A stretch of 64,000 nt of DNA, taken from NCBI GenBank assembly GCA_021796115.1, contig JAJYOP010000001.1:119755-183754 (forward strand), read 5' to 3'. Each line of letters starts with the position of its first letter. Position 1 is the stretch's first letter. Shown one piece after another: positions 1 through 52,696 of this stretch. This stretch comes from a bacterium (GTDB lineage Bacteria > Omnitrophota > Gorgyraeia > Duberdicusellales > 4484-171). The translations under genes were made by a program, and so were the position numbers. The notes beneath the pieces were generated by a model that ran no database searches, was not told the DNA's origin, and worked only from the letters and a program-made list of their open reading frames with translations.

Positions 1-66
1 CGTTTGGTCATTGGATGTTGAATATTGGAACTTGTTTGTACCTTGTCTCTTGGTTATTGGTTATTT
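1..66. repeat. Right arm of a long TTGG/ATTGG-word palindrome, truncated by the window edge
   Basis: Low-complexity TTGG/ATTGG words. The last 19 nt (48-66, TCTTGGTTATTGGTTATTT) are identical to 3417-3435, the end of the complete palindrome at 3236-3435. Confidence 0.6.
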
Positions 67-3435: not shown

Positions 3436-3444
3436 AATAAAACT

Positions 3445-3903
3445 ATGCGCTACATTATTAATGTAATTGCCATACTCGTTGTGGCAGCTATAGTTTCGCT
3501 TGCTGTCTACTTCAAAAATAATTCTACAATTTATCCCTTCCAAGGCGACGTTCATAAATTTCTTAAAGAAGTTTCCCAGTTCATGACAGCAACGAAAAGA
3601 AACATAAACATGAGTATTGCCCCTACGCGGAGAAAAAAAATTACTTTTATCGATAAAGAATCGATTCTTCGTCAATATATCCCATGGGTTTTTGGAGAAT
3701 TTACCGATGGTGATTGGAAAAATTTCTGGGGACTTATTTATAACCCCATCTCTGACCCAAAAAGCAAATATGGCCAGAAAAGATACCGCGCCAAGGAAGA
3801 AATAGAAGGTTATCTTATTGAAAATTATTCGAATCCTTTCAGCTATTTCAATAAAAGCCAGTGGCAAGATTTCTGGAATATTGTAGGCGCAGATATACAA
3901 TAA
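3445..3903 (+). CDS. Hypothetical membrane-anchored protein
   Basis: Start moved to MRYIINVIAILVV because the 3412 start lies inside the palindrome arm. One N-terminal TM helix; no family recognised. Confidence 0.5.
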   Translation: MRYIINVIAILVVAAIVSLAVYFKNNSTIYPFQGDVHKFLKEVSQFMTATKRNINMSIAPTRRKKITFIDKESILRQYIPWVFGEFTDGDWKNFWGLIYNPISDPKSKYGQKRYRAKEEIEGYLIENYSNPFSYFNKSQWQDFWNIVGADIQ

Positions 3904-3912
3904 ATATTATTA

Positions 3913-4776
3913 ATGTCTAAAACTCCCGCCATATTCGGTTTGTTGGGTTTTCCGGTAAGCCACAGTTTTTCGCCGGCTATGCATAACGCCGCCTTTAAAC
4001 ACCTTAACATTAACGCCGAATATAAATTGTTCGAAAAAAGGCCGGAAGAGGTAGAGAAATTTATTACTTCCTTAGAGAAGCAGAGTATTTCCGGCCTAAA
4101 CGTGACGGTTCCTTACAAAGAGAAGGTATTAGATTATGTAAAGATAGATAACGATTCTTTTTATGTCAGGCAAATAAAAGCAGTAAATACAATAGTAATG
4201 GAAAACGGCGTTCGAAAAGGATTTAATACCGATGCCCCGGGTTTCGAGAGGGATTTGAAAGAAAAAAGCGGGGATCCAAAAAATAAAAAAGCAGCTATTT
4301 TGGGTGCCGGAGGCGCTTCGCGTGCCGTCAGCTTTGTTTTAGCGAAAACAAAAGTCAAGGAGATAGCCATATACGATATTGACAAAAATAAATCTAAGAA
4401 TATAGTGGATTTAATTAAAAGTTTATTTCCGGGTTTTGCCATTTATTCGGTAAATCAGATAGAAGAATTAAAAATTAAAGAAAAAGACCTGCTTATTAAC
4501 GCAACCCCTATCGGTATGAAACCTGATGATCCTTGCCTGGTTATGGAAGAAATGCTGCATAAGAAGTTATTCGTTTACGACGTTATTTATAATCCGGTCA
4601 AAACAAAATTATTGGCCTTGGCGGAAAGGGCTGGAGCGAAAACAGCAAATGGTTTAGGTATGCTTTTATATCAAGGCGTAATCTCTTTTGAGTATTTTAC
4701 AGGAGAAAAAGCGCCCATAGATATAATGCAAAAAACACTTGAGGAGAGCCTGAAAAATGCCGGAAGCCGTAAATAG
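3913..4776 (+). CDS. aroE: Shikimate dehydrogenase
   Basis: GLLGFPVSHSFSPAMHNAAF and GAGGASRAV motifs. Confidence 0.9.
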   Translation: MSKTPAIFGLLGFPVSHSFSPAMHNAAFKHLNINAEYKLFEKRPEEVEKFITSLEKQSISGLNVTVPYKEKVLDYVKIDNDSFYVRQIKAVNTIVMENGVRKGFNTDAPGFERDLKEKSGDPKNKKAAILGAGGASRAVSFVLAKTKVKEIAIYDIDKNKSKNIVDLIKSLFPGFAIYSVNQIEELKIKEKDLLINATPIGMKPDDPCLVMEEMLHKKLFVYDVIYNPVKTKLLALAERAGAKTANGLGMLLYQGVISFEYFTGEKAPIDIMQKTLEESLKNAGSRK

Positions 4777-10899: not shown

Positions 10900-11271
10900 T
10901 TGATGATCGAAAGGCGCAAGTTTGATAGAGTATTTAAATCATCAATTGTGAGATTTAGATTTTTTAAAAGCCACCTCGGCATGTCTTCCCGTTGCGAGAA
11001 CATTTGTGAGGAAGGTATGCGCTTGGTTGCTCTCCAAAGGCTCTCACCCGGCATGATGCTTAATCTAAATTTCCAATTGGAAGAATTAGGCCCGCCAATT
11101 TTAGCTTCCGCCAAAGTGATATGGCAAAACAACAGGGATAATATTTACTATCCCTTTGCGGTAGGATTAAAATTCACCAAAATAAGTTCTGCCGACCGCG
11201 AAAGAATCGCTAGTTACATAAAAACAGCAAGCAGAGAAAACCCTTCTAATGCCCCTAAAGTCGTCCGTTAA
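10900..11271 (+). CDS. Stand-alone PilZ domain protein
   Basis: RRKFDR (RxxxR) near the N-terminus and a NICEEG variant of D/NxSxxG. Confidence 0.65.
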   Translation: MMIERRKFDRVFKSSIVRFRFFKSHLGMSSRCENICEEGMRLVALQRLSPGMMLNLNFQLEELGPPILASAKVIWQNNRDNIYYPFAVGLKFTKISSADRERIASYIKTASRENPSNAPKVVR

Positions 11272-11526: not shown

Positions 11527-11599
11527 GCCGAGGTAGCTCAGTCGGTAGAGCGAAGGACTGAAAATCCTTGCGTGGGGGGTTCGATTCCCTCCCTCGGCA
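11527..11599 (+). tRNA. tRNA-Phe (GAA)
   Basis: Cloverleaf folded by hand: acceptor GCCGAGG/CCTCGGC, anticodon loop CTGAAAA, T-loop TTCGATT. No encoded CCA. Confidence 0.9.
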
Positions 11600-11611
11600 C
11601 TGTATTATTTT

Positions 11612-11639
11612 AGAGAGGTTATAAAACCTCTCTTTTTTA
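11612..11639 (+). terminator. Intrinsic terminator after tRNA-Phe
   Basis: AGAGAGGTT-ATAA-AACCTCTCT followed by TTTTT. Confidence 0.85.
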
Positions 11640-11692
11640 TTGGGATTAGGCATAATTCTATATGAAAAACATACAATATCAAATTGTTAGGA

Positions 11693-11715
11693 AAATTTCT
11701 CCCAGGGAAAAATTT
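11693..11715. promoter_or_regulatory. 23-bp palindrome AAATTTCTCCC-A-GGGAAAAATTT (candidate operator)
   Basis: One mismatch between the half sites. Centred ~60 nt upstream of the inferred riboswitch transcription start. A related site lies at 12911-12931. Confidence 0.5.
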
Positions 11716-11727
11716 AGGAAAGTAGCC

Positions 11728-11758
11728 TTGCAATCTTGTTAAATATATGTTATACAAT
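11728..11758 (+). promoter_or_regulatory. Sigma70-like promoter of riboswitch cassette 1
   Basis: TTGCAA-N17-TATACAAT. A 32-nt block AATCTTGTTAAATATATGTTATACAATAAATG is identical at 52039-52070. Confidence 0.6.
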
Positions 11759-11789
11759 AAATGGTAAGGTAGTTCTTCAAAATTTATAG

Positions 11790-11937
11790 GAAAAAAGCTA
11801 ATCCTGAGAAACCAGGTGGCGCAACCCACGAACCAGAACATAGTTCGATTCGGTGGGTTGCCCGGCACCGAATTTATTCTGGTGCTGGGCAAAGCTTAAA
11901 GAGCCTAAAGCCGTAAGGCTATGGTAGTCAGCTGCCG
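11790..11937 (+). promoter_or_regulatory. GEMM-I-like cyclic-dinucleotide riboswitch aptamer, copy 1 (carries a ~66-nt insertion)
   Basis: AGCTAATCC..GAAA..GGCGCAA[insert]AAGCTTAAAGAGCCTAAAGCCGTAAGGCTATGGTAGTCAGCTGCCG resembles the Vc2 core GGCAAACC..GAAA..GGGACGCAAAGCC..GGCCTAAACC..CCGGTAGGTAGCGGGG. Confidence 0.65.
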
Positions 11938-11954
11938 TAAAATACAGAATGTTT

Positions 11955-11986
11955 AAAGCCCATAGTTTTGACTATGGGCTTTTTTG
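11955..11986 (+). terminator. Intrinsic terminator (riboswitch expression platform)
   Basis: AAAGCCCATAG-loop-CTATGGGCTTT followed by a T-run. Confidence 0.85.
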
Positions 11987-12129
11987 TTTGAGCAGGCAAT
12001 CTATGCTTGCTCTTACCGCAAGCGCAGGAGTTTGCATCCGGACCTAATCCCTTTTGCCAGAATTCTACGGGCTTTGTCCGTGCGGGTTCCAGGTTTTCAA
12101 AAATTGGCAAACTCCAGAAAATTTTACTT

Positions 12130-12158
12130 TTGATAACAAAGAAAAATTGTAATACAAT
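12130..12158 (+). promoter_or_regulatory. Sigma70-like promoter proximal to pilin 1
   Basis: TTGATA-N17-TACAAT, 25 nt upstream of the GGAGGG Shine-Dalgarno. Confidence 0.55.
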
Positions 12159-12182
12159 ATTACTATAAAAAGGAGGGTAGTA

Positions 12183-12548
12183 ATGAGAAATAAAAAAGGT
12201 TTTACGCTTATCGAATTAGTCATGGTTATTGTTATCCTGGGTATTTTGGCAGTAGTGGCCGCACCAAAGTATTTTAACCTTTCAGCATCCGCCAACCAGG
12301 CAGCAGAACAGGGTGTAGTGGGCGGAGTAAGGTCCGGTATCTCGAGTTATTTTGCGCAGAATAAAGCTTATCCTCTAACCCTGGACGCAGCTCTACCTGT
12401 TGCCTGTAGTACAGCAAACGCATGTTTTACAAACGTTCTCTCGCAGGGCGGTATCACTTCCCAATGGACAAAGGTTAGTAATACCCTTTATAGAGGGCCG
12501 ACTGGTACATCATACACTTATACTGTCGCAGATGGCTCGTTTCAATAA
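12183..12548 (+). CDS. Type IV pilin (paralog 1, canonical Gly at -1)
   Basis: Prepilin leader MRNKKG|FTLIELVMVIVILGILA with Glu+5; Cys-x6-Cys pair in the C-terminal part. Confidence 0.85.
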   Translation: MRNKKGFTLIELVMVIVILGILAVVAAPKYFNLSASANQAAEQGVVGGVRSGISSYFAQNKAYPLTLDAALPVACSTANACFTNVLSQGGITSQWTKVSNTLYRGPTGTSYTYTVADGSFQ

Positions 12549-13098: not shown

Positions 13099-14769
13099 AT
13101 GGCAGGCAGTTTAGAAATTTTAGATTTGTTATTAAAAGAAGGTTTAATAACTTCGGAACAGATTGAAAAGGCAAAAATAGAGACCAAACGTACCGGCCTA
13201 AGCATAGAGAGGGCTCTGGAAAAGTTAGGTTTTATTACCGAGGAAGATATCGTAAGGACACGGGCAAACGCACTGGGGATACCCTATATGGATTTGGAGA
13301 GCTGCCAAATTGACCCCAATATTATAAAACTAATTCCTGAAAGCATCGCCAGAAAATATAAAATCCTTCCTCTTTTTAAAATCGGCAACAGTCTTAATGT
13401 GGCGATGGTTAATCCCTCTGACATAGTTGCCATGGATCAGATACGAAGATTGATATCCAGCGGAGGGAACCTTGAGGTGATATTAGTAAGCCAAAAAAGC
13501 TTAGAGAAAGTTTTGGATGATTGTTTCGATACGAGCGGCGCAACCGCGAAGATACTTGAATCAATAGATAAGTCCGCCGGAAAAATAAAACAAACAGGGC
13601 TGATAGAAAGCGCCGATGAGGCGCCAGTCATAAAATTGGTCGACTCATTAATCGCCGAAGCAGTAAAAAACAGGGCTTCGGATATTCACATCGAGCCTGA
13701 ACAGGCAAATGTGCGGGTACGTTTCCGCATTGACGGAGCACTGCAAGAGATAAATTTCCTTCCTAAATCACTTCAGGATAATGTAGTGTCACGCATCAAA
13801 GTTTTATCCAAGATGGATATTGCGGAAACCCGCAGCCCGCAGGATGGCAGTATCAATATGAAGCTGGAAAACCGGGAATTAGATATCCGCGTTTCCACCT
13901 TTCCTACTATTTACGGAGAAAATGTCGTGATGCGGCTTTTAGACAAAACTTCGGTTTTGTTCGGGCTTAAGGACCTTGGGCTTTCAGAAGAGACTCTCAA
14001 CCAGTTTAATAAGCTTATCCGCCGGCCAAACGGAATAATCCTGGTTACCGGACCAACCGGCAGCGGAAAAACTACTACTCTATACGCGGCGCTTACCAGC
14101 ATCAGTTCCATGGAAAAGAATATTATTACCATCGAGGATCCGGTTGAATACGAGCTGCCTTTGATTCGGCAAACTCCCGTTAATACCAAAGCGGGGATTA
14201 CCTTTGCTAACGGCTTGCGCAGTATCCTCAGACAGGATCCGGATATTATTATGGTGGGAGAAATTCGTGACAAGGAGACTGTGGAAATAGCTATACAGGC
14301 CTCGCTTACGGGCCATCTTGTGTTTTCCACCCTGCATACCAATGATGCCGCTTCGGCGCTCACGCGTTTAATCGATATTGGCGTTGAGCCATTTTTAGTC
14401 TCAAGTTCCATCGTCGGCATTCTTGCTCAGCGTTTAGTGCGCCTGATTTGCCCAAAGTGCAAGGAGGCCTATACTCCTAGCAGCGATATTCTTGAGGAGC
14501 TTGGTCTTTCCAAACAGGAAGAATATTTACACGGTAAAGGTTGCCCAGTTTGCAAAAAAACCGGCTTTTTTGGCAGAGTGGGCATATTTGAATTGCTGGT
14601 TATCAATGAGGATATCCGTAAAATGATAGAGGCAAAAAGTTCTGCGGATGAGATAAAAAAAAGGGTCATCTCCCTCGGGATGACTACATTACGCCAGGAT
14701 GGCATTAATAAAATAAAACAGGGATTAACCACCGCCGAAGAGGTTGTTAAGGTAACAGAAATAGAATAG
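13099..14769 (+). CDS. pilB: Type IV pilus assembly ATPase (GspE/PilB/MshE family)
   Basis: N-terminal T2SSE_N-like repeats, Walker A GPTGSGKTTT, Asp/His boxes, tetracysteine CPKC...CPVC. Confidence 0.9.
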   Translation: MAGSLEILDLLLKEGLITSEQIEKAKIETKRTGLSIERALEKLGFITEEDIVRTRANALGIPYMDLESCQIDPNIIKLIPESIARKYKILPLFKIGNSLNVAMVNPSDIVAMDQIRRLISSGGNLEVILVSQKSLEKVLDDCFDTSGATAKILESIDKSAGKIKQTGLIESADEAPVIKLVDSLIAEAVKNRASDIHIEPEQANVRVRFRIDGALQEINFLPKSLQDNVVSRIKVLSKMDIAETRSPQDGSINMKLENRELDIRVSTFPTIYGENVVMRLLDKTSVLFGLKDLGLSEETLNQFNKLIRRPNGIILVTGPTGSGKTTTLYAALTSISSMEKNIITIEDPVEYELPLIRQTPVNTKAGITFANGLRSILRQDPDIIMVGEIRDKETVEIAIQASLTGHLVFSTLHTNDAASALTRLIDIGVEPFLVSSSIVGILAQRLVRLICPKCKEAYTPSSDILEELGLSKQEEYLHGKGCPVCKKTGFFGRVGIFELLVINEDIRKMIEAKSSADEIKKRVISLGMTTLRQDGINKIKQGLTTAEEVVKVTEIE

Positions 14770-51864: not shown

Positions 51865-51928
51865 ATTTATTACTCCTTTTATACACAGATAGTCAGAGAT
51901 GTGGAAGCGGATAATCACAGATGATTTT

Positions 51929-51968
51929 ATCTGTGATTATCTGTGATCTTTATCTGTGGCCATCTGTG
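51929..51968 (+). promoter_or_regulatory. ATCTGTG box array (4 exact boxes)
   Basis: Exact boxes at 51929, 51939, 51952 and 51962. Inverted CACAGAT boxes lie at 51884 and 51916. The perfect hairpin ATAATCACAGAT-GATTTT-ATCTGTGATTAT spans 51911-51940. Confidence 0.6.
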
Positions 51969-52034
51969 TACCCAAAATTATTATAACTATACTTATAAAT
52001 CAGCTATTGTCAAGGAAAATCTGGGGAAATCGTC

Positions 52035-52065
52035 TTGTAATCTTGTTAAATATATGTTATACAAT
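52035..52065 (+). promoter_or_regulatory. Sigma70-like promoter of riboswitch cassette 2
   Basis: TTGTAA-N17-TATACAAT; near-identical to 11728-11758. Confidence 0.6.
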
Positions 52066-52097
52066 AAATGACAAACCAGTTCTTTAAAATTTATACG

Positions 52098-52176
52098 AAA
52101 AAAGCTAACCTTGGGAAATCAGGGGGCGCAAAGCTTAAAGAGCCTAAAGCCATAAGGCTATGGTAGTCAGCTGCCG
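52098..52176 (+). promoter_or_regulatory. GEMM-I-like cyclic-dinucleotide riboswitch aptamer, copy 2 (compact)
   Basis: AAAAGCTAACCTTGGGAAATCAGGGGGCGCAAAGCTTAAAGAGCCTAAAGCCATAAGGCTATGGTAGTCAGCTGCCG aligns by eye with the Vibrio cholerae Vc2 core. Confidence 0.75.
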
Positions 52177-52195
52177 TTATTTTATTTGAAAGGTT

Positions 52196-52226
52196 AAACC
52201 CATAGCTTGTAGCTATGGGTTTTTTA
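52196..52226 (+). terminator. Intrinsic terminator (riboswitch expression platform)
   Basis: AAACCCATAGC-loop-GCTATGGGTTT followed by a T-run. Confidence 0.85.
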
Positions 52227-52290
52227 TTGAAAACCCCACTCGCAATTCGACCAGGTCTTTTTGCAAAGCAAAAAGACAGTCTCATTGCTC

Positions 52291-52355
52291 GGGGGTAATT
52301 CGCACTTGTCTTTTTTCAGACAGGAGTCTGAAAAAAGACTGTGCTCATTAGGAGG
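52291..52355 (+). promoter_or_regulatory. Conserved leader hairpin, copy 3
   Basis: GGGGGTAATTCGCAC, perfect 13-bp stem GTCTTTTTTCAGA / TCTGAAAAAAGAC, GTGCTCATT, AGGAGG Shine-Dalgarno. A related module (AATTCGAC..GTCTCATT) lies at 52244-52288. Confidence 0.6.
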
Positions 52356-52360
52356 TGGCT

Positions 52361-52696
52361 ATGTTAAGGAAAGCCGTGGGTTTACTTATTGTGTGTTTAA
52401 TGGTTATGTCAGTGAGCGCATTTGCCGAAGACAATAATGCGCTTGCTAAATTGGGCAGAGGGTTAACCAATGCCGTGACAGGAGTAGTAGAAATTCCAAA
52501 GCAAATTTATCTTGTTTCGCAGGAGAAAGAACCCATCACAGGCATTACTTATGGCACAGCCAAAGGTATATGCTATGGGTTAATGCGTACGGCAGCCGGA
52601 GTTTATGACACCCTTGCTTTCGCAATCCCTCCTTATGATAAACCGGTTATGGAGCCTGCATTTGTGTTTGAAGGATGGCAGGCGGAGAAAAAGTAA
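52361..52696 (+). CDS. Small secreted protein resembling the exosortase-system-associated TIGR04073 family
   Basis: Start moved to the ATG 5 nt after the Shine-Dalgarno. Signal peptide; KLGRGLTNAVTGVVEIPKQIY, GTAKGICYGLMRTAAGVYDTLAF, EPAFVF. Confidence 0.6.
   Translation: MLRKAVGLLIVCLMVMSVSAFAEDNNALAKLGRGLTNAVTGVVEIPKQIYLVSQEKEPITGITYGTAKGICYGLMRTAAGVYDTLAFAIPPYDKPVMEPAFVFEGWQAEKK

Follow-up and report, generated by a model that had tools for sequence, protein, structure and literature searches.

A double-hairpin insert at the ligand-binding junction of a GEMM-I riboswitch in Candidatus Omnitrophota, probably a copy of a dispersed small hairpin repeat

Position of the insert in the first riboswitch leader

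The 64-kb stretch of Omnitrophota DNA analyzed here (contig JAJYOP010000001.1; collectively termed the window) carries two leaders of the GEMM-I riboswitch family (RF01051). The first of them (copy 1) stands upstream of a pilus gene cluster and is split by a double-hairpin insert, and the second (copy 2) is uninterrupted. The features of both leaders, of the insert and of the adjacent pilus genes are compiled in Table 1. It can be deciphered from the pairwise alignment of the leaders that copy 1 (~11783-11939) and copy 2 (52093-52178) are collinear except for one extra block of 62-68 nucleotides (nt) in copy 1, taken here as 68 nt and bounded by GGTGGCGC on the left and by AAAGCTTAAAG / AAAGCTT on the right. 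The insert starts 224 nt downstream of a tRNA-Phe gene (11527-11599).

Table 1. Coordinates of the riboswitch leaders, the double-hairpin insert and the adjacent pilus genes in the 64-kb window
Feature	Position	Strand	Description
Double-hairpin insert, 68 nt	11823-11890	+	Missing from copy 2; composite also in loci L018 and L034, in unrelated contexts
Hairpin H1	11823-11859	+	AACCCAC GAA ..GAAC ATA GTTC.. TTC G GTGGGTT; one bulged G, 3' arm
Hairpin H2	11860-11890	+	GCCCG GCACC GAA TTTA TTC T GGTGC TGGGC; one bulged T, 3' arm
Conserved 21-nt H2 core GCACCGAATTTATTCTGGTGC	11865-11885	+	Exact in 79 metagenome contigs
Copy 1, 5' half	11783-11822	+	P1 5' strand, A at 11796, P2 GAAA tetraloop 11808-11811, P2-closing GC 11821-11822
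Copy 1, 3' half	11891-11939	+	Junction AA 11891-11892, P3 with tetraloop receptor 11893-11933, GCCG with C92 equivalent 11935
Copy 1 intrinsic terminator	11955-11989	+	12-bp stem and T tract
Copy 2, uninterrupted reference	52093-52178	+	RF01051, 65.5 bits, E 1.4e-10
Copy 2 intrinsic terminator	52196-52225	+	Compensatory stem changes relative to copy 1
Promoter block, 30 nt, TCTTGTTAAATATATGTTATACAATAAATG	11734-11763 and 52041-52070	+	Two exact matches in the window
Pilin-like gene (N_methyl)	12183-12548	+	Heads a type IV pilus / MSHA-like cluster
Pilus ATPase with MshEN domain	13099-14769		Downstream of copy 1

The tetranucleotide GCAA is found at 11821-11824 and again at 11889-11892, that is at both edges of the insert, and because of this repetition the boundary is not fixable to the base. 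Five frames are possible, from 11821-11888 through 11825-11892, with a shift of at most 2 nt each way. The frame 11823-11890 was adopted, as it gives exactly two abutting hairpins, H1 and H2. An insertion of about 66 nt in copy 1 had been reported by the initial annotation of this DNA with correct strings and coordinates, and the leader alignment extends its length to 68 nt.

The same annotation had assigned the insert to the junction in which the ligand-intercalating adenosine is normally held, and both the cmscan positions and the leader alignment bear this out. When the breakpoint is projected onto the cmscan alignment of copy 2, model position 37 (the C that ends the P2-closing GC) stands on its left and positions 38-39 (both junction adenosines) on its right; in the numbering of the Vibrio cholerae Vc2 aptamer this is the step from C46 to A47. 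The insert is located in the junction and not in a variable peripheral loop; a peripheral placement, which the annotation had named as counting against its claim, was looked for in the alignment of copy 2 and was not found. In the Vc2 crystal structures of Smith et al. 2009 and Kulshina et al. 2009, A47 is reportedly stacked between the two ligand bases. Further, G20, A47 and C92 have been named as ligand contacts (PMC4744006) and the backbone of A47 touches the ligand (PMC5888326).

The covariance model divides the aptamer of copy 1 exactly at the insert. Copy 1 falls below the RF01051 gathering score, as only its 3' half (11871-11939) is matched, at 32.1 bits against a cut-off of 35 and with P2 skipped, and its 5' half gives a separate weak clan match (11787-11866, 16 bits). 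With the exception of one loop base, P3 of copy 1 (11893-11933) is the same as P3 of copy 2, and its receptor CCUAAG / UAUGG is retained. The ligand-contact residues, mapped via the copy 2 alignment, are likewise present: A 11796 (A20 type), AA 11891-11892 and C 11935. What is missing in copy 1 is the contiguous three-way junction, 68 nt being placed between the P2-closing pair and the A47 equivalent.

Copy 1 also departs from copy 2 in its helices. The second P1 pair is G.G in place of C-G, the basal P2 pair is U.U in place of C-G and the P2 pair beside the tetraloop is A.C in place of G.U, which leaves a P2 stem of four Watson-Crick pairs between an A.C and a U.U. By comparison with copy 2 these weakened pairs appear to be signs of decay. 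In minimum-free-energy folds the terminator is formed in both copies regardless, and the complementarity between P3 and terminator (6-8 bp) is too weak to tell the ON/OFF polarity.

Fold of the element and its distribution

Minimum-free-energy folding against shuffled sequences substantiated the description of the insert as two hairpins. The 66-mer folds at -32.2 kcal/mol, as against -18.0 +/- 2.9 kcal/mol for the shuffles (n=200; z -4.84), with 0/200 shuffles as stable. On inclusion of the flanking AA and TT the two-hairpin fold reaches -36.6 kcal/mol, compared with -24.7 kcal/mol for a single long hairpin formed from the insert ends. As an unusual feature, both H1 and H2 possess a 3-bp GAA/TTC top segment followed by one base that bulges from the 3' arm. 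H1 shares CCCA, ACCAGAA and ATTCGGTG with the reverse complement of H2. The insert carries imperfect terminal inverted repeats (CCCAnnnACCAGAA / TTCTGGTnnTGGG; CCCAcgaACCAGAA ... TTCTGGTgcTGGG).

No second copy of the insert was found in the 64-kb window by searches with up to 3 mismatches, by blastn-short or by a structural regular expression, as the initial annotation had stated. An Rfam scan by E-value of 11600-12200 gave nothing above chance level over the insert. A degenerate unit pattern was constructed from the motifs shared by H1 and H2; it matches both hairpins of the window and both strands of the insert, and it was run against a genome collection. The scan returned 31 matches, mostly single chance matches in diverse unrelated taxa, and two of the 31 were Candidatus Omnitrophota metagenome-assembled genomes in which H1 and H2 occur in the order and spacing of the window.

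In the first of these genomes (QNCG01000055.1, locus L018) the composite lies at 370-431, as ACCCAGAACCAGAACAGAGTTCGGTTCTGGGT followed by GCCCAGCACCGAATTTATTCTGGTGCTGGGC, and splits the T-loop (TTC^AAAT) of a partial tRNA-Pro(GGG) copy. An intact tRNA-Pro(GGG) gene (168-244) is situated 85 nt upstream of the partial copy, the duplicated part is identical between the two, and a deleted variant occupies the same T-loop position at locus L086. In the second genome (JBDRDJ010000014.1, locus L034) the composite lies at 311-391 in a divergent intergenic region and bears an internal duplication within H1. The H2 sequences of L018 and L034 are identical, and the H2 of the window differs from them by one base (G.U replacing A-U). 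H1 is the variable part of the composite, with compensatory changes in its lower stem (CCCAC/GTGGG in the window, CCCAG/CTGGG in L018 and CCCCG/CGGGG in L034), and the upper stem and loop of H2 are highly conserved. An exact 24-mer across the H1/H2 joint gave 0 matches in the metagenome collection; the joint lacks the conservation that both units show.

All three composites share a left flank with final C, an element end CTGGGC and a right flank that begins with AA. The targets read GCGC^AAAG (window), GTTC^AAAT (L018) and ACAC^AAGA (L034), with right-hand bases AAAGC, AAATCC (T-loop) and AAGAC respectively, and the target consensus is YC^AA with 2-4 nt of identity between element end and target. 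The bases repeated at the element edges are GCAA in the window, CA in L018 and CAA in L034, a pattern that either a 2-nt CA duplication or insertion at C^AA without any duplication could leave. The annotation had also remarked that the insert tail GGGCAAAGC mimics the interrupted motif. This likeness finds its explanation in the element end CTGGGC meeting the target AA(A/G), because every composite copy ends ...CTGGGC and always precedes such a target. Filled sites can be compared with an uninterrupted sister twice, in copy 1 and copy 2 and in the duplicated and intact tRNA-Pro of L018, the sites in both cases being paralogous and not allelic; these two independent comparisons demonstrate precise insertion.

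The H2 unit is dispersed much more widely. The contigs that carry its exact 21-nt core represent 58-67 distinct contexts, depending on the flank length compared; the census was collected with this exact 21-mer, and the conservation of the 21-mer is partly a product of that query. Outside the core, a 4-bp lower stem of the form YCCN/NGGR preserves its pairing by co-variation. The first pair outside the core is paired in 52/58 contexts (C-G 35, A-T 8, T-A 2, T.G 6, other wobble 1), compared with a shuffle expectation of mean 37 and maximum 47. On the left flank of the 58 contexts a purine precedes YCCN, and on the right NGGR is followed by C/T.

The contexts of H2 include tRNA genes, a group I intron and terminator-like positions. 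A tRNA gene lies within 100 nt of H2 in 15 of the 67 distinct contexts, the tRNA density of the loci being one per 8.5 kb. Pseudo-fragments of tRNA 3' ends, that is copies of the T-arm and the 3' acceptor strand, stand just downstream of the intact tRNA in L040, L042, L056, L066, L074 and L099, and TTGA, followed by H2 either directly or after a variable hairpin, breaks their T-loop behind TT. Pseudo-fragments of 5' ends break off within the D-loop, and an oppositely oriented H2 comes after them (L075, L087 and L114). At L018 (168-446) and L074 the pseudo 3' end has CCA, and the adjacent intact tRNA gene is without an encoded CCA.

The group I intron is found in L041 (77-587, minus strand), where it interrupts a 23S rRNA gene near model position 1955, and the H2 core (476-496) is inside a large peripheral insertion of the intron. 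A 23S fragment in L077 has insertions of more than 1.4 kb with H2 included, and the related locus L095 carries a LAGLIDADG-type open reading frame (ORF). Terminator-like copies of H2 with A-run and T-run flanks occur in L043, L055, L059 and L102, and in the L038 group H2 is nested within other hairpins. Two H2 copies per locus were seen in only three fetched loci (L057, L097 and L107). In L097 a repeat of ~180 nt that contains H2 is present at 3436-3703 and 4245-4475, 814 nt apart (also in L107), and it stands between small toxin-antitoxin-like genes in a layout that recalls a cassette array.

The exact H2 core is also present at 4363-4383 of a 522.9-kb contig (L098, Ga0315277_10000002), and for the MTAP gene of this contig Patescibacteria proteins are the nearest relatives (69-73% identity to named matches). 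By this affiliation the host looks Patescibacteria-like, and because the exact 21-mer occurs there as well, the H2 repeat would be common to two phyla. Gene exchange between Omnitrophota and Patescibacteria in groundwater has been reported (PMC12455944).

Interpretation and alternatives

We interpret the insert, with a probability of roughly 0.7, as a copy of a family of small non-autonomous hairpin repeats that landed at C^AA in the pocket of copy 1 and most likely disables its ligand sensing. The family is scattered in ultra-small groundwater bacteria, comprising Candidatus Omnitrophota and at least one Patescibacteria-like contig, and is previously undescribed; no description of this hairpin repeat was found in the literature. 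Its distribution suggests that the element is mobile. Among the options offered by the initial annotation, a small insertion element is now strongly supported, being backed by the composite at unrelated sites in two Omnitrophota genomes and by H2 in ~60 further contexts. The option of an aptamer variant with an extra domain has lost ground, because the module is not riboswitch-specific and occurs outside riboswitches, and the sister copy does without it.

In the proposed course of events, a trans-acting enzyme that recognizes the hairpins would insert the element as DNA, and the element would come to lie between the P2-closing C (C46 equivalent) and the adenosine that is stacked between the ligand bases (A47 equivalent). 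Two rigid helices without any linker would convert the three-way junction to a five-way junction, most likely abolishing or strongly weakening ligand binding, and the terminator of copy 1 would then be unresponsive to the second messenger. A second promoter-like site (12130-12158) may buffer the pilus operon and make the loss of the switch nearly neutral. A disabled riboswitch is the likely consequence because the element is inserted in the ligand pocket, and we regard a loss of ligand control in copy 1 as reasonably likely. As all conserved nucleotides of the aptamer core are still intact, the element probably arrived only recently or has been close to neutral.

Several observations weigh against this interpretation. 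A tblastn search of the 891 kb of DNA fetched with an IS200 TnpA query found no IS200-type transposase, which is a weak negative, and no protein family was recurrent within 2 kb of the H2 copies, resampled loci aside. The 64 kb of this genome hold a single copy of the element. Copy 1 retains its core nucleotides, P3, promoter and terminator intact, and the change of the P2 pair from G.U to A.C can be isosteric. Finally, self-contained and very stable hairpins (-36.6 kcal/mol) might simply bulge out of the junction. No integrase adjoins the L018 composite, and a search of IMG/VR with the 21-mer returned 0 matches and no sign of a viral carrier.

The alternative that survives best is that copy 1 is still functional, with the hairpins bulging from a five-way junction as an inert or stabilizing side-domain and with AA 11891-11892 supplying the intercalating adenosine. 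The ends of the hairpins are base-paired, the fold of the whole leader has P2, H1 and H2 as separate helices, and every conserved core position equals that of copy 2. The promoter block is identical, the terminator stem has been preserved by compensatory changes, and elsewhere H2 is tolerated peripherally in a group I intron. The insert of copy 1, however, is not peripheral: it abuts the P2-closing pair on one side and the junction adenosines on the other, with zero linker nt, three helix pairs are weaker than in copy 2, and the occurrence of the module in many non-riboswitch contexts argues against its selection as a component of this RNA. A functional copy 1 is judged unlikely.

If the element were co-opted in the copy 1 leader, for processing by a double-strand-specific RNase or for the docking of a protein, the pilus operon would come under a new input in place of ligand control. 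The strong conservation of the H2 loop and upper stem in ~60 contexts and two phyla would suit recognition by a conserved protein, and hairpin repeats of the REP type do act at the RNA level (PMC3733652). This conservation partly follows from querying with the 21-mer, though, nothing specific to the copy 1 locus supports co-option, and the genes within 2 kb of H2 copies include no candidate protein, so we hold co-option to be very unlikely. A chimeric join of the metagenome assembly is extremely improbable: although the window derives from a MEGAHIT-style contig (ENA k141_326913), the insertion is base-precise in an otherwise collinear 250-nt alignment, both flanks belong to one riboswitch, the pilin gene is on three recorded contigs and the same composite occurs in independent assemblies from other studies. 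The possibility that H2 acts as a substitute P2 (GC...GC then CAAAGC) was rejected, as H2 has neither a GNRA loop nor an internal loop and the same hairpin is found at many unrelated sites.

Apart from the insertion of a hairpin repeat into copy 1 as such, the tRNA-associated copies invite a bolder conjecture, which we consider quite doubtful. H2 would then mark a hitherto undescribed class of site-specific mobile hairpins, spread across Omnitrophota and Patescibacteria, that home to T-loop-like TT^CRAA / C^AAA in structured-RNA genes and generate tRNA pseudo-fragments, some of them with non-encoded CCA, and the riboswitch junction GCGCAAAGC would have been hit as a mimic of the T-loop. If true, such homing together with the non-encoded CCA would indicate an RNA-level or tRNA-fragment-dependent step.

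Comparison with known elements

REP and REPIN sequences are mobilized by RAYT tyrosine transposases of the IS200/IS605-type Y1 group. The present element resembles them in that its short units, of 29-37 nt each, are imperfect palindromes with a GC stem that form stable stem-loops and lie in the 20-40 nt range of REP, and in being non-autonomous and dispersed as single or paired units that are mostly intergenic and sometimes terminator-like. It differs in several respects. A REP hallmark is the tetranucleotide GTAG (or CGTC) at one end (PMC3733652), and no GTAG/CGTC tag is present at the foot of the hairpin in the 58 contexts. H1 and H2 are distinct hairpins in the same orientation with 3'-arm bulges, unlike the inverted doublet of REPIN, and no RAYT gene was found near the copies, either in the 891 kb searched by tblastn, a weak negative, or among neighbors within 2 kb. 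The copy number appears low here (one per 64 kb), and for H2 the identical 21-mer is seen in two phyla. With no tag, no RAYT found in the DNA searched and a single copy in these 64 kb, the element is outside REP as defined.

Among miniature inverted-repeat transposable elements (MITEs), the Rickettsia palindromic and Neisseria Correia elements are ~100-150 bp long with clear terminal inverted repeats, and Correia elements show a TA duplication. Like these, the present element is a small non-autonomous hairpin insertion that is found within functional or RNA genes, could be co-transcribed with them, and is present or absent at otherwise identical (paralogous) sites. It differs by its length of 68 nt, by its imperfect terminal inverted repeat, and by a 2-4 nt end identity that is indistinguishable from a target duplication. 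The double-hairpin elements of Allomyces mitochondrial DNA, reportedly described by Paquin, Laforest and Lang 2000 (cited in PMC7218506), are likewise tiny, consist of two adjacent hairpins and are optional between relatives, with a mobility deduced from presence and absence; they belong to another compartment and lineage and are not known to have any sequence in common with the present element.

IS200/IS605-derived miniature elements (PATEs) provide a further parallel, with a hairpin at each end that has an extra-helical base, insertion just 3' of a short specific sequence without clear duplication, and a right end that resembles the target. However, the hairpins of the present element extend to its very ends, which leaves no room for the IS608 spacing of guide and cleavage site, and no Y1 transposase was seen in the 891-kb tblastn search, itself a weak negative. 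By analogy, the ends and target may be said to resemble those of IS200/IS605 miniature elements only loosely. As for the riboswitch itself, copy 1 agrees with GEMM-I (RF01051, including GEMM-Ib) in the GAAA-capped P2, the P3 receptor, the junction AA, the GCC with the C92 equivalent and A20, and departs from it in the 68-nt interruption of its P2/P3 junction and in scoring below the Rfam gathering threshold.

Three other origins were tried and rejected. A known integron attC site does not account for the element: AAC...GTT brackets H1 in the window but AC/GT does so in L018, the R boxes RYYYAAC ... GTTRRRY are not conserved between copies, and the element occurs in tRNA genes, an intron and a riboswitch and not in cassette arrays. 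The arms and spacer misfit the dif consensus. A derivation of H2 from a tRNA anticodon or T-arm by microhomology fusion found no counterpart, as 0/57 distinct tRNAs of the fetched loci contain GCACCAGA, TCTGGTGC or related 8-mers.

Overall, copy 1 is a naturally occurring mutant whose insertion hits the GEMM-I pocket where it is most sensitive. The same genome holds an intact sister at a distance of 40 kb, and the pair could serve as an internal control for the tolerance of the P2/P3 junction. For annotation, it follows that covariance-model scans overlook riboswitches split by such elements. The hairpin repeat family, common to Omnitrophota and Patescibacteria-like genomes, is strongly associated with tRNA genes and pseudo-fragments and occurs also in a group I intron; the mechanism of its spread and its apparent exchange between phyla are testable questions.

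Genes and signals around the two leaders

Both copies have A instead of G at the Vc2 G20 position (11796 and 52103), just 5' of the P2-opening GC (AAAAAAGC). Riboswitches of the cGAMP-sensing GEMM-Ib subtype and bispecific G20A mutants are characterized by an A at this position (PMC6140456). Because both copies carry it, the ligand may be 3',3'-cGAMP (cyclic GMP-AMP), or both dinucleotides.

Downstream of copy 1, the pilus ATPase includes an MshEN domain, and upstream, a PilZ-domain ORF (10900-11271) is located just ahead of tRNA-Phe. MshEN is the cyclic di-GMP-binding domain of MshE-type ATPases. As the riboswitch locus includes both the MshEN ATPase and the PilZ ORF, dinucleotides may be sensed here at the RNA as well as the protein level. 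The second promoter mentioned above is sigma-70-like (TTGATA-17-TACAAT, 10/12 matches) and is situated downstream of the copy 1 terminator, ahead of the pilin gene; with this predicted promoter, expression of the pilus operon may be independent of the riboswitch. Homologs of the ATPase belong to named Omnitrophota/Omnitrophica, by which the host itself is judged to be an Omnitrophota bacterium, the closest homologs being only 72-78% identical. The closest homolog loci (L002-L005) offered no orthologous empty site and Rfam shows no GEMM-I in them; a histidine kinase and response regulators stand upstream of the ATPase homolog there, replacing the pilin and the riboswitch.

The 30-nt promoter blocks of the two leaders are identical despite a separation of ~40 kb and diverged surroundings, which suggests a shared regulator or a strong constraint. 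ATCTGTG(A) repeats are clustered at 51915-51970 (cacagatgattttatctgtgattatctgtgatctttatctgtggccatctgtg), on the upstream side of the copy 2 promoter, and may constitute an array of binding sites. Two further inverted repeats, ggtctttttgcaaagcaaaaagac and gtcttttttcagacaggagtctgaaaaaagac, are found at 52240-52345, between the copy 2 terminator and the ORF at 52362.

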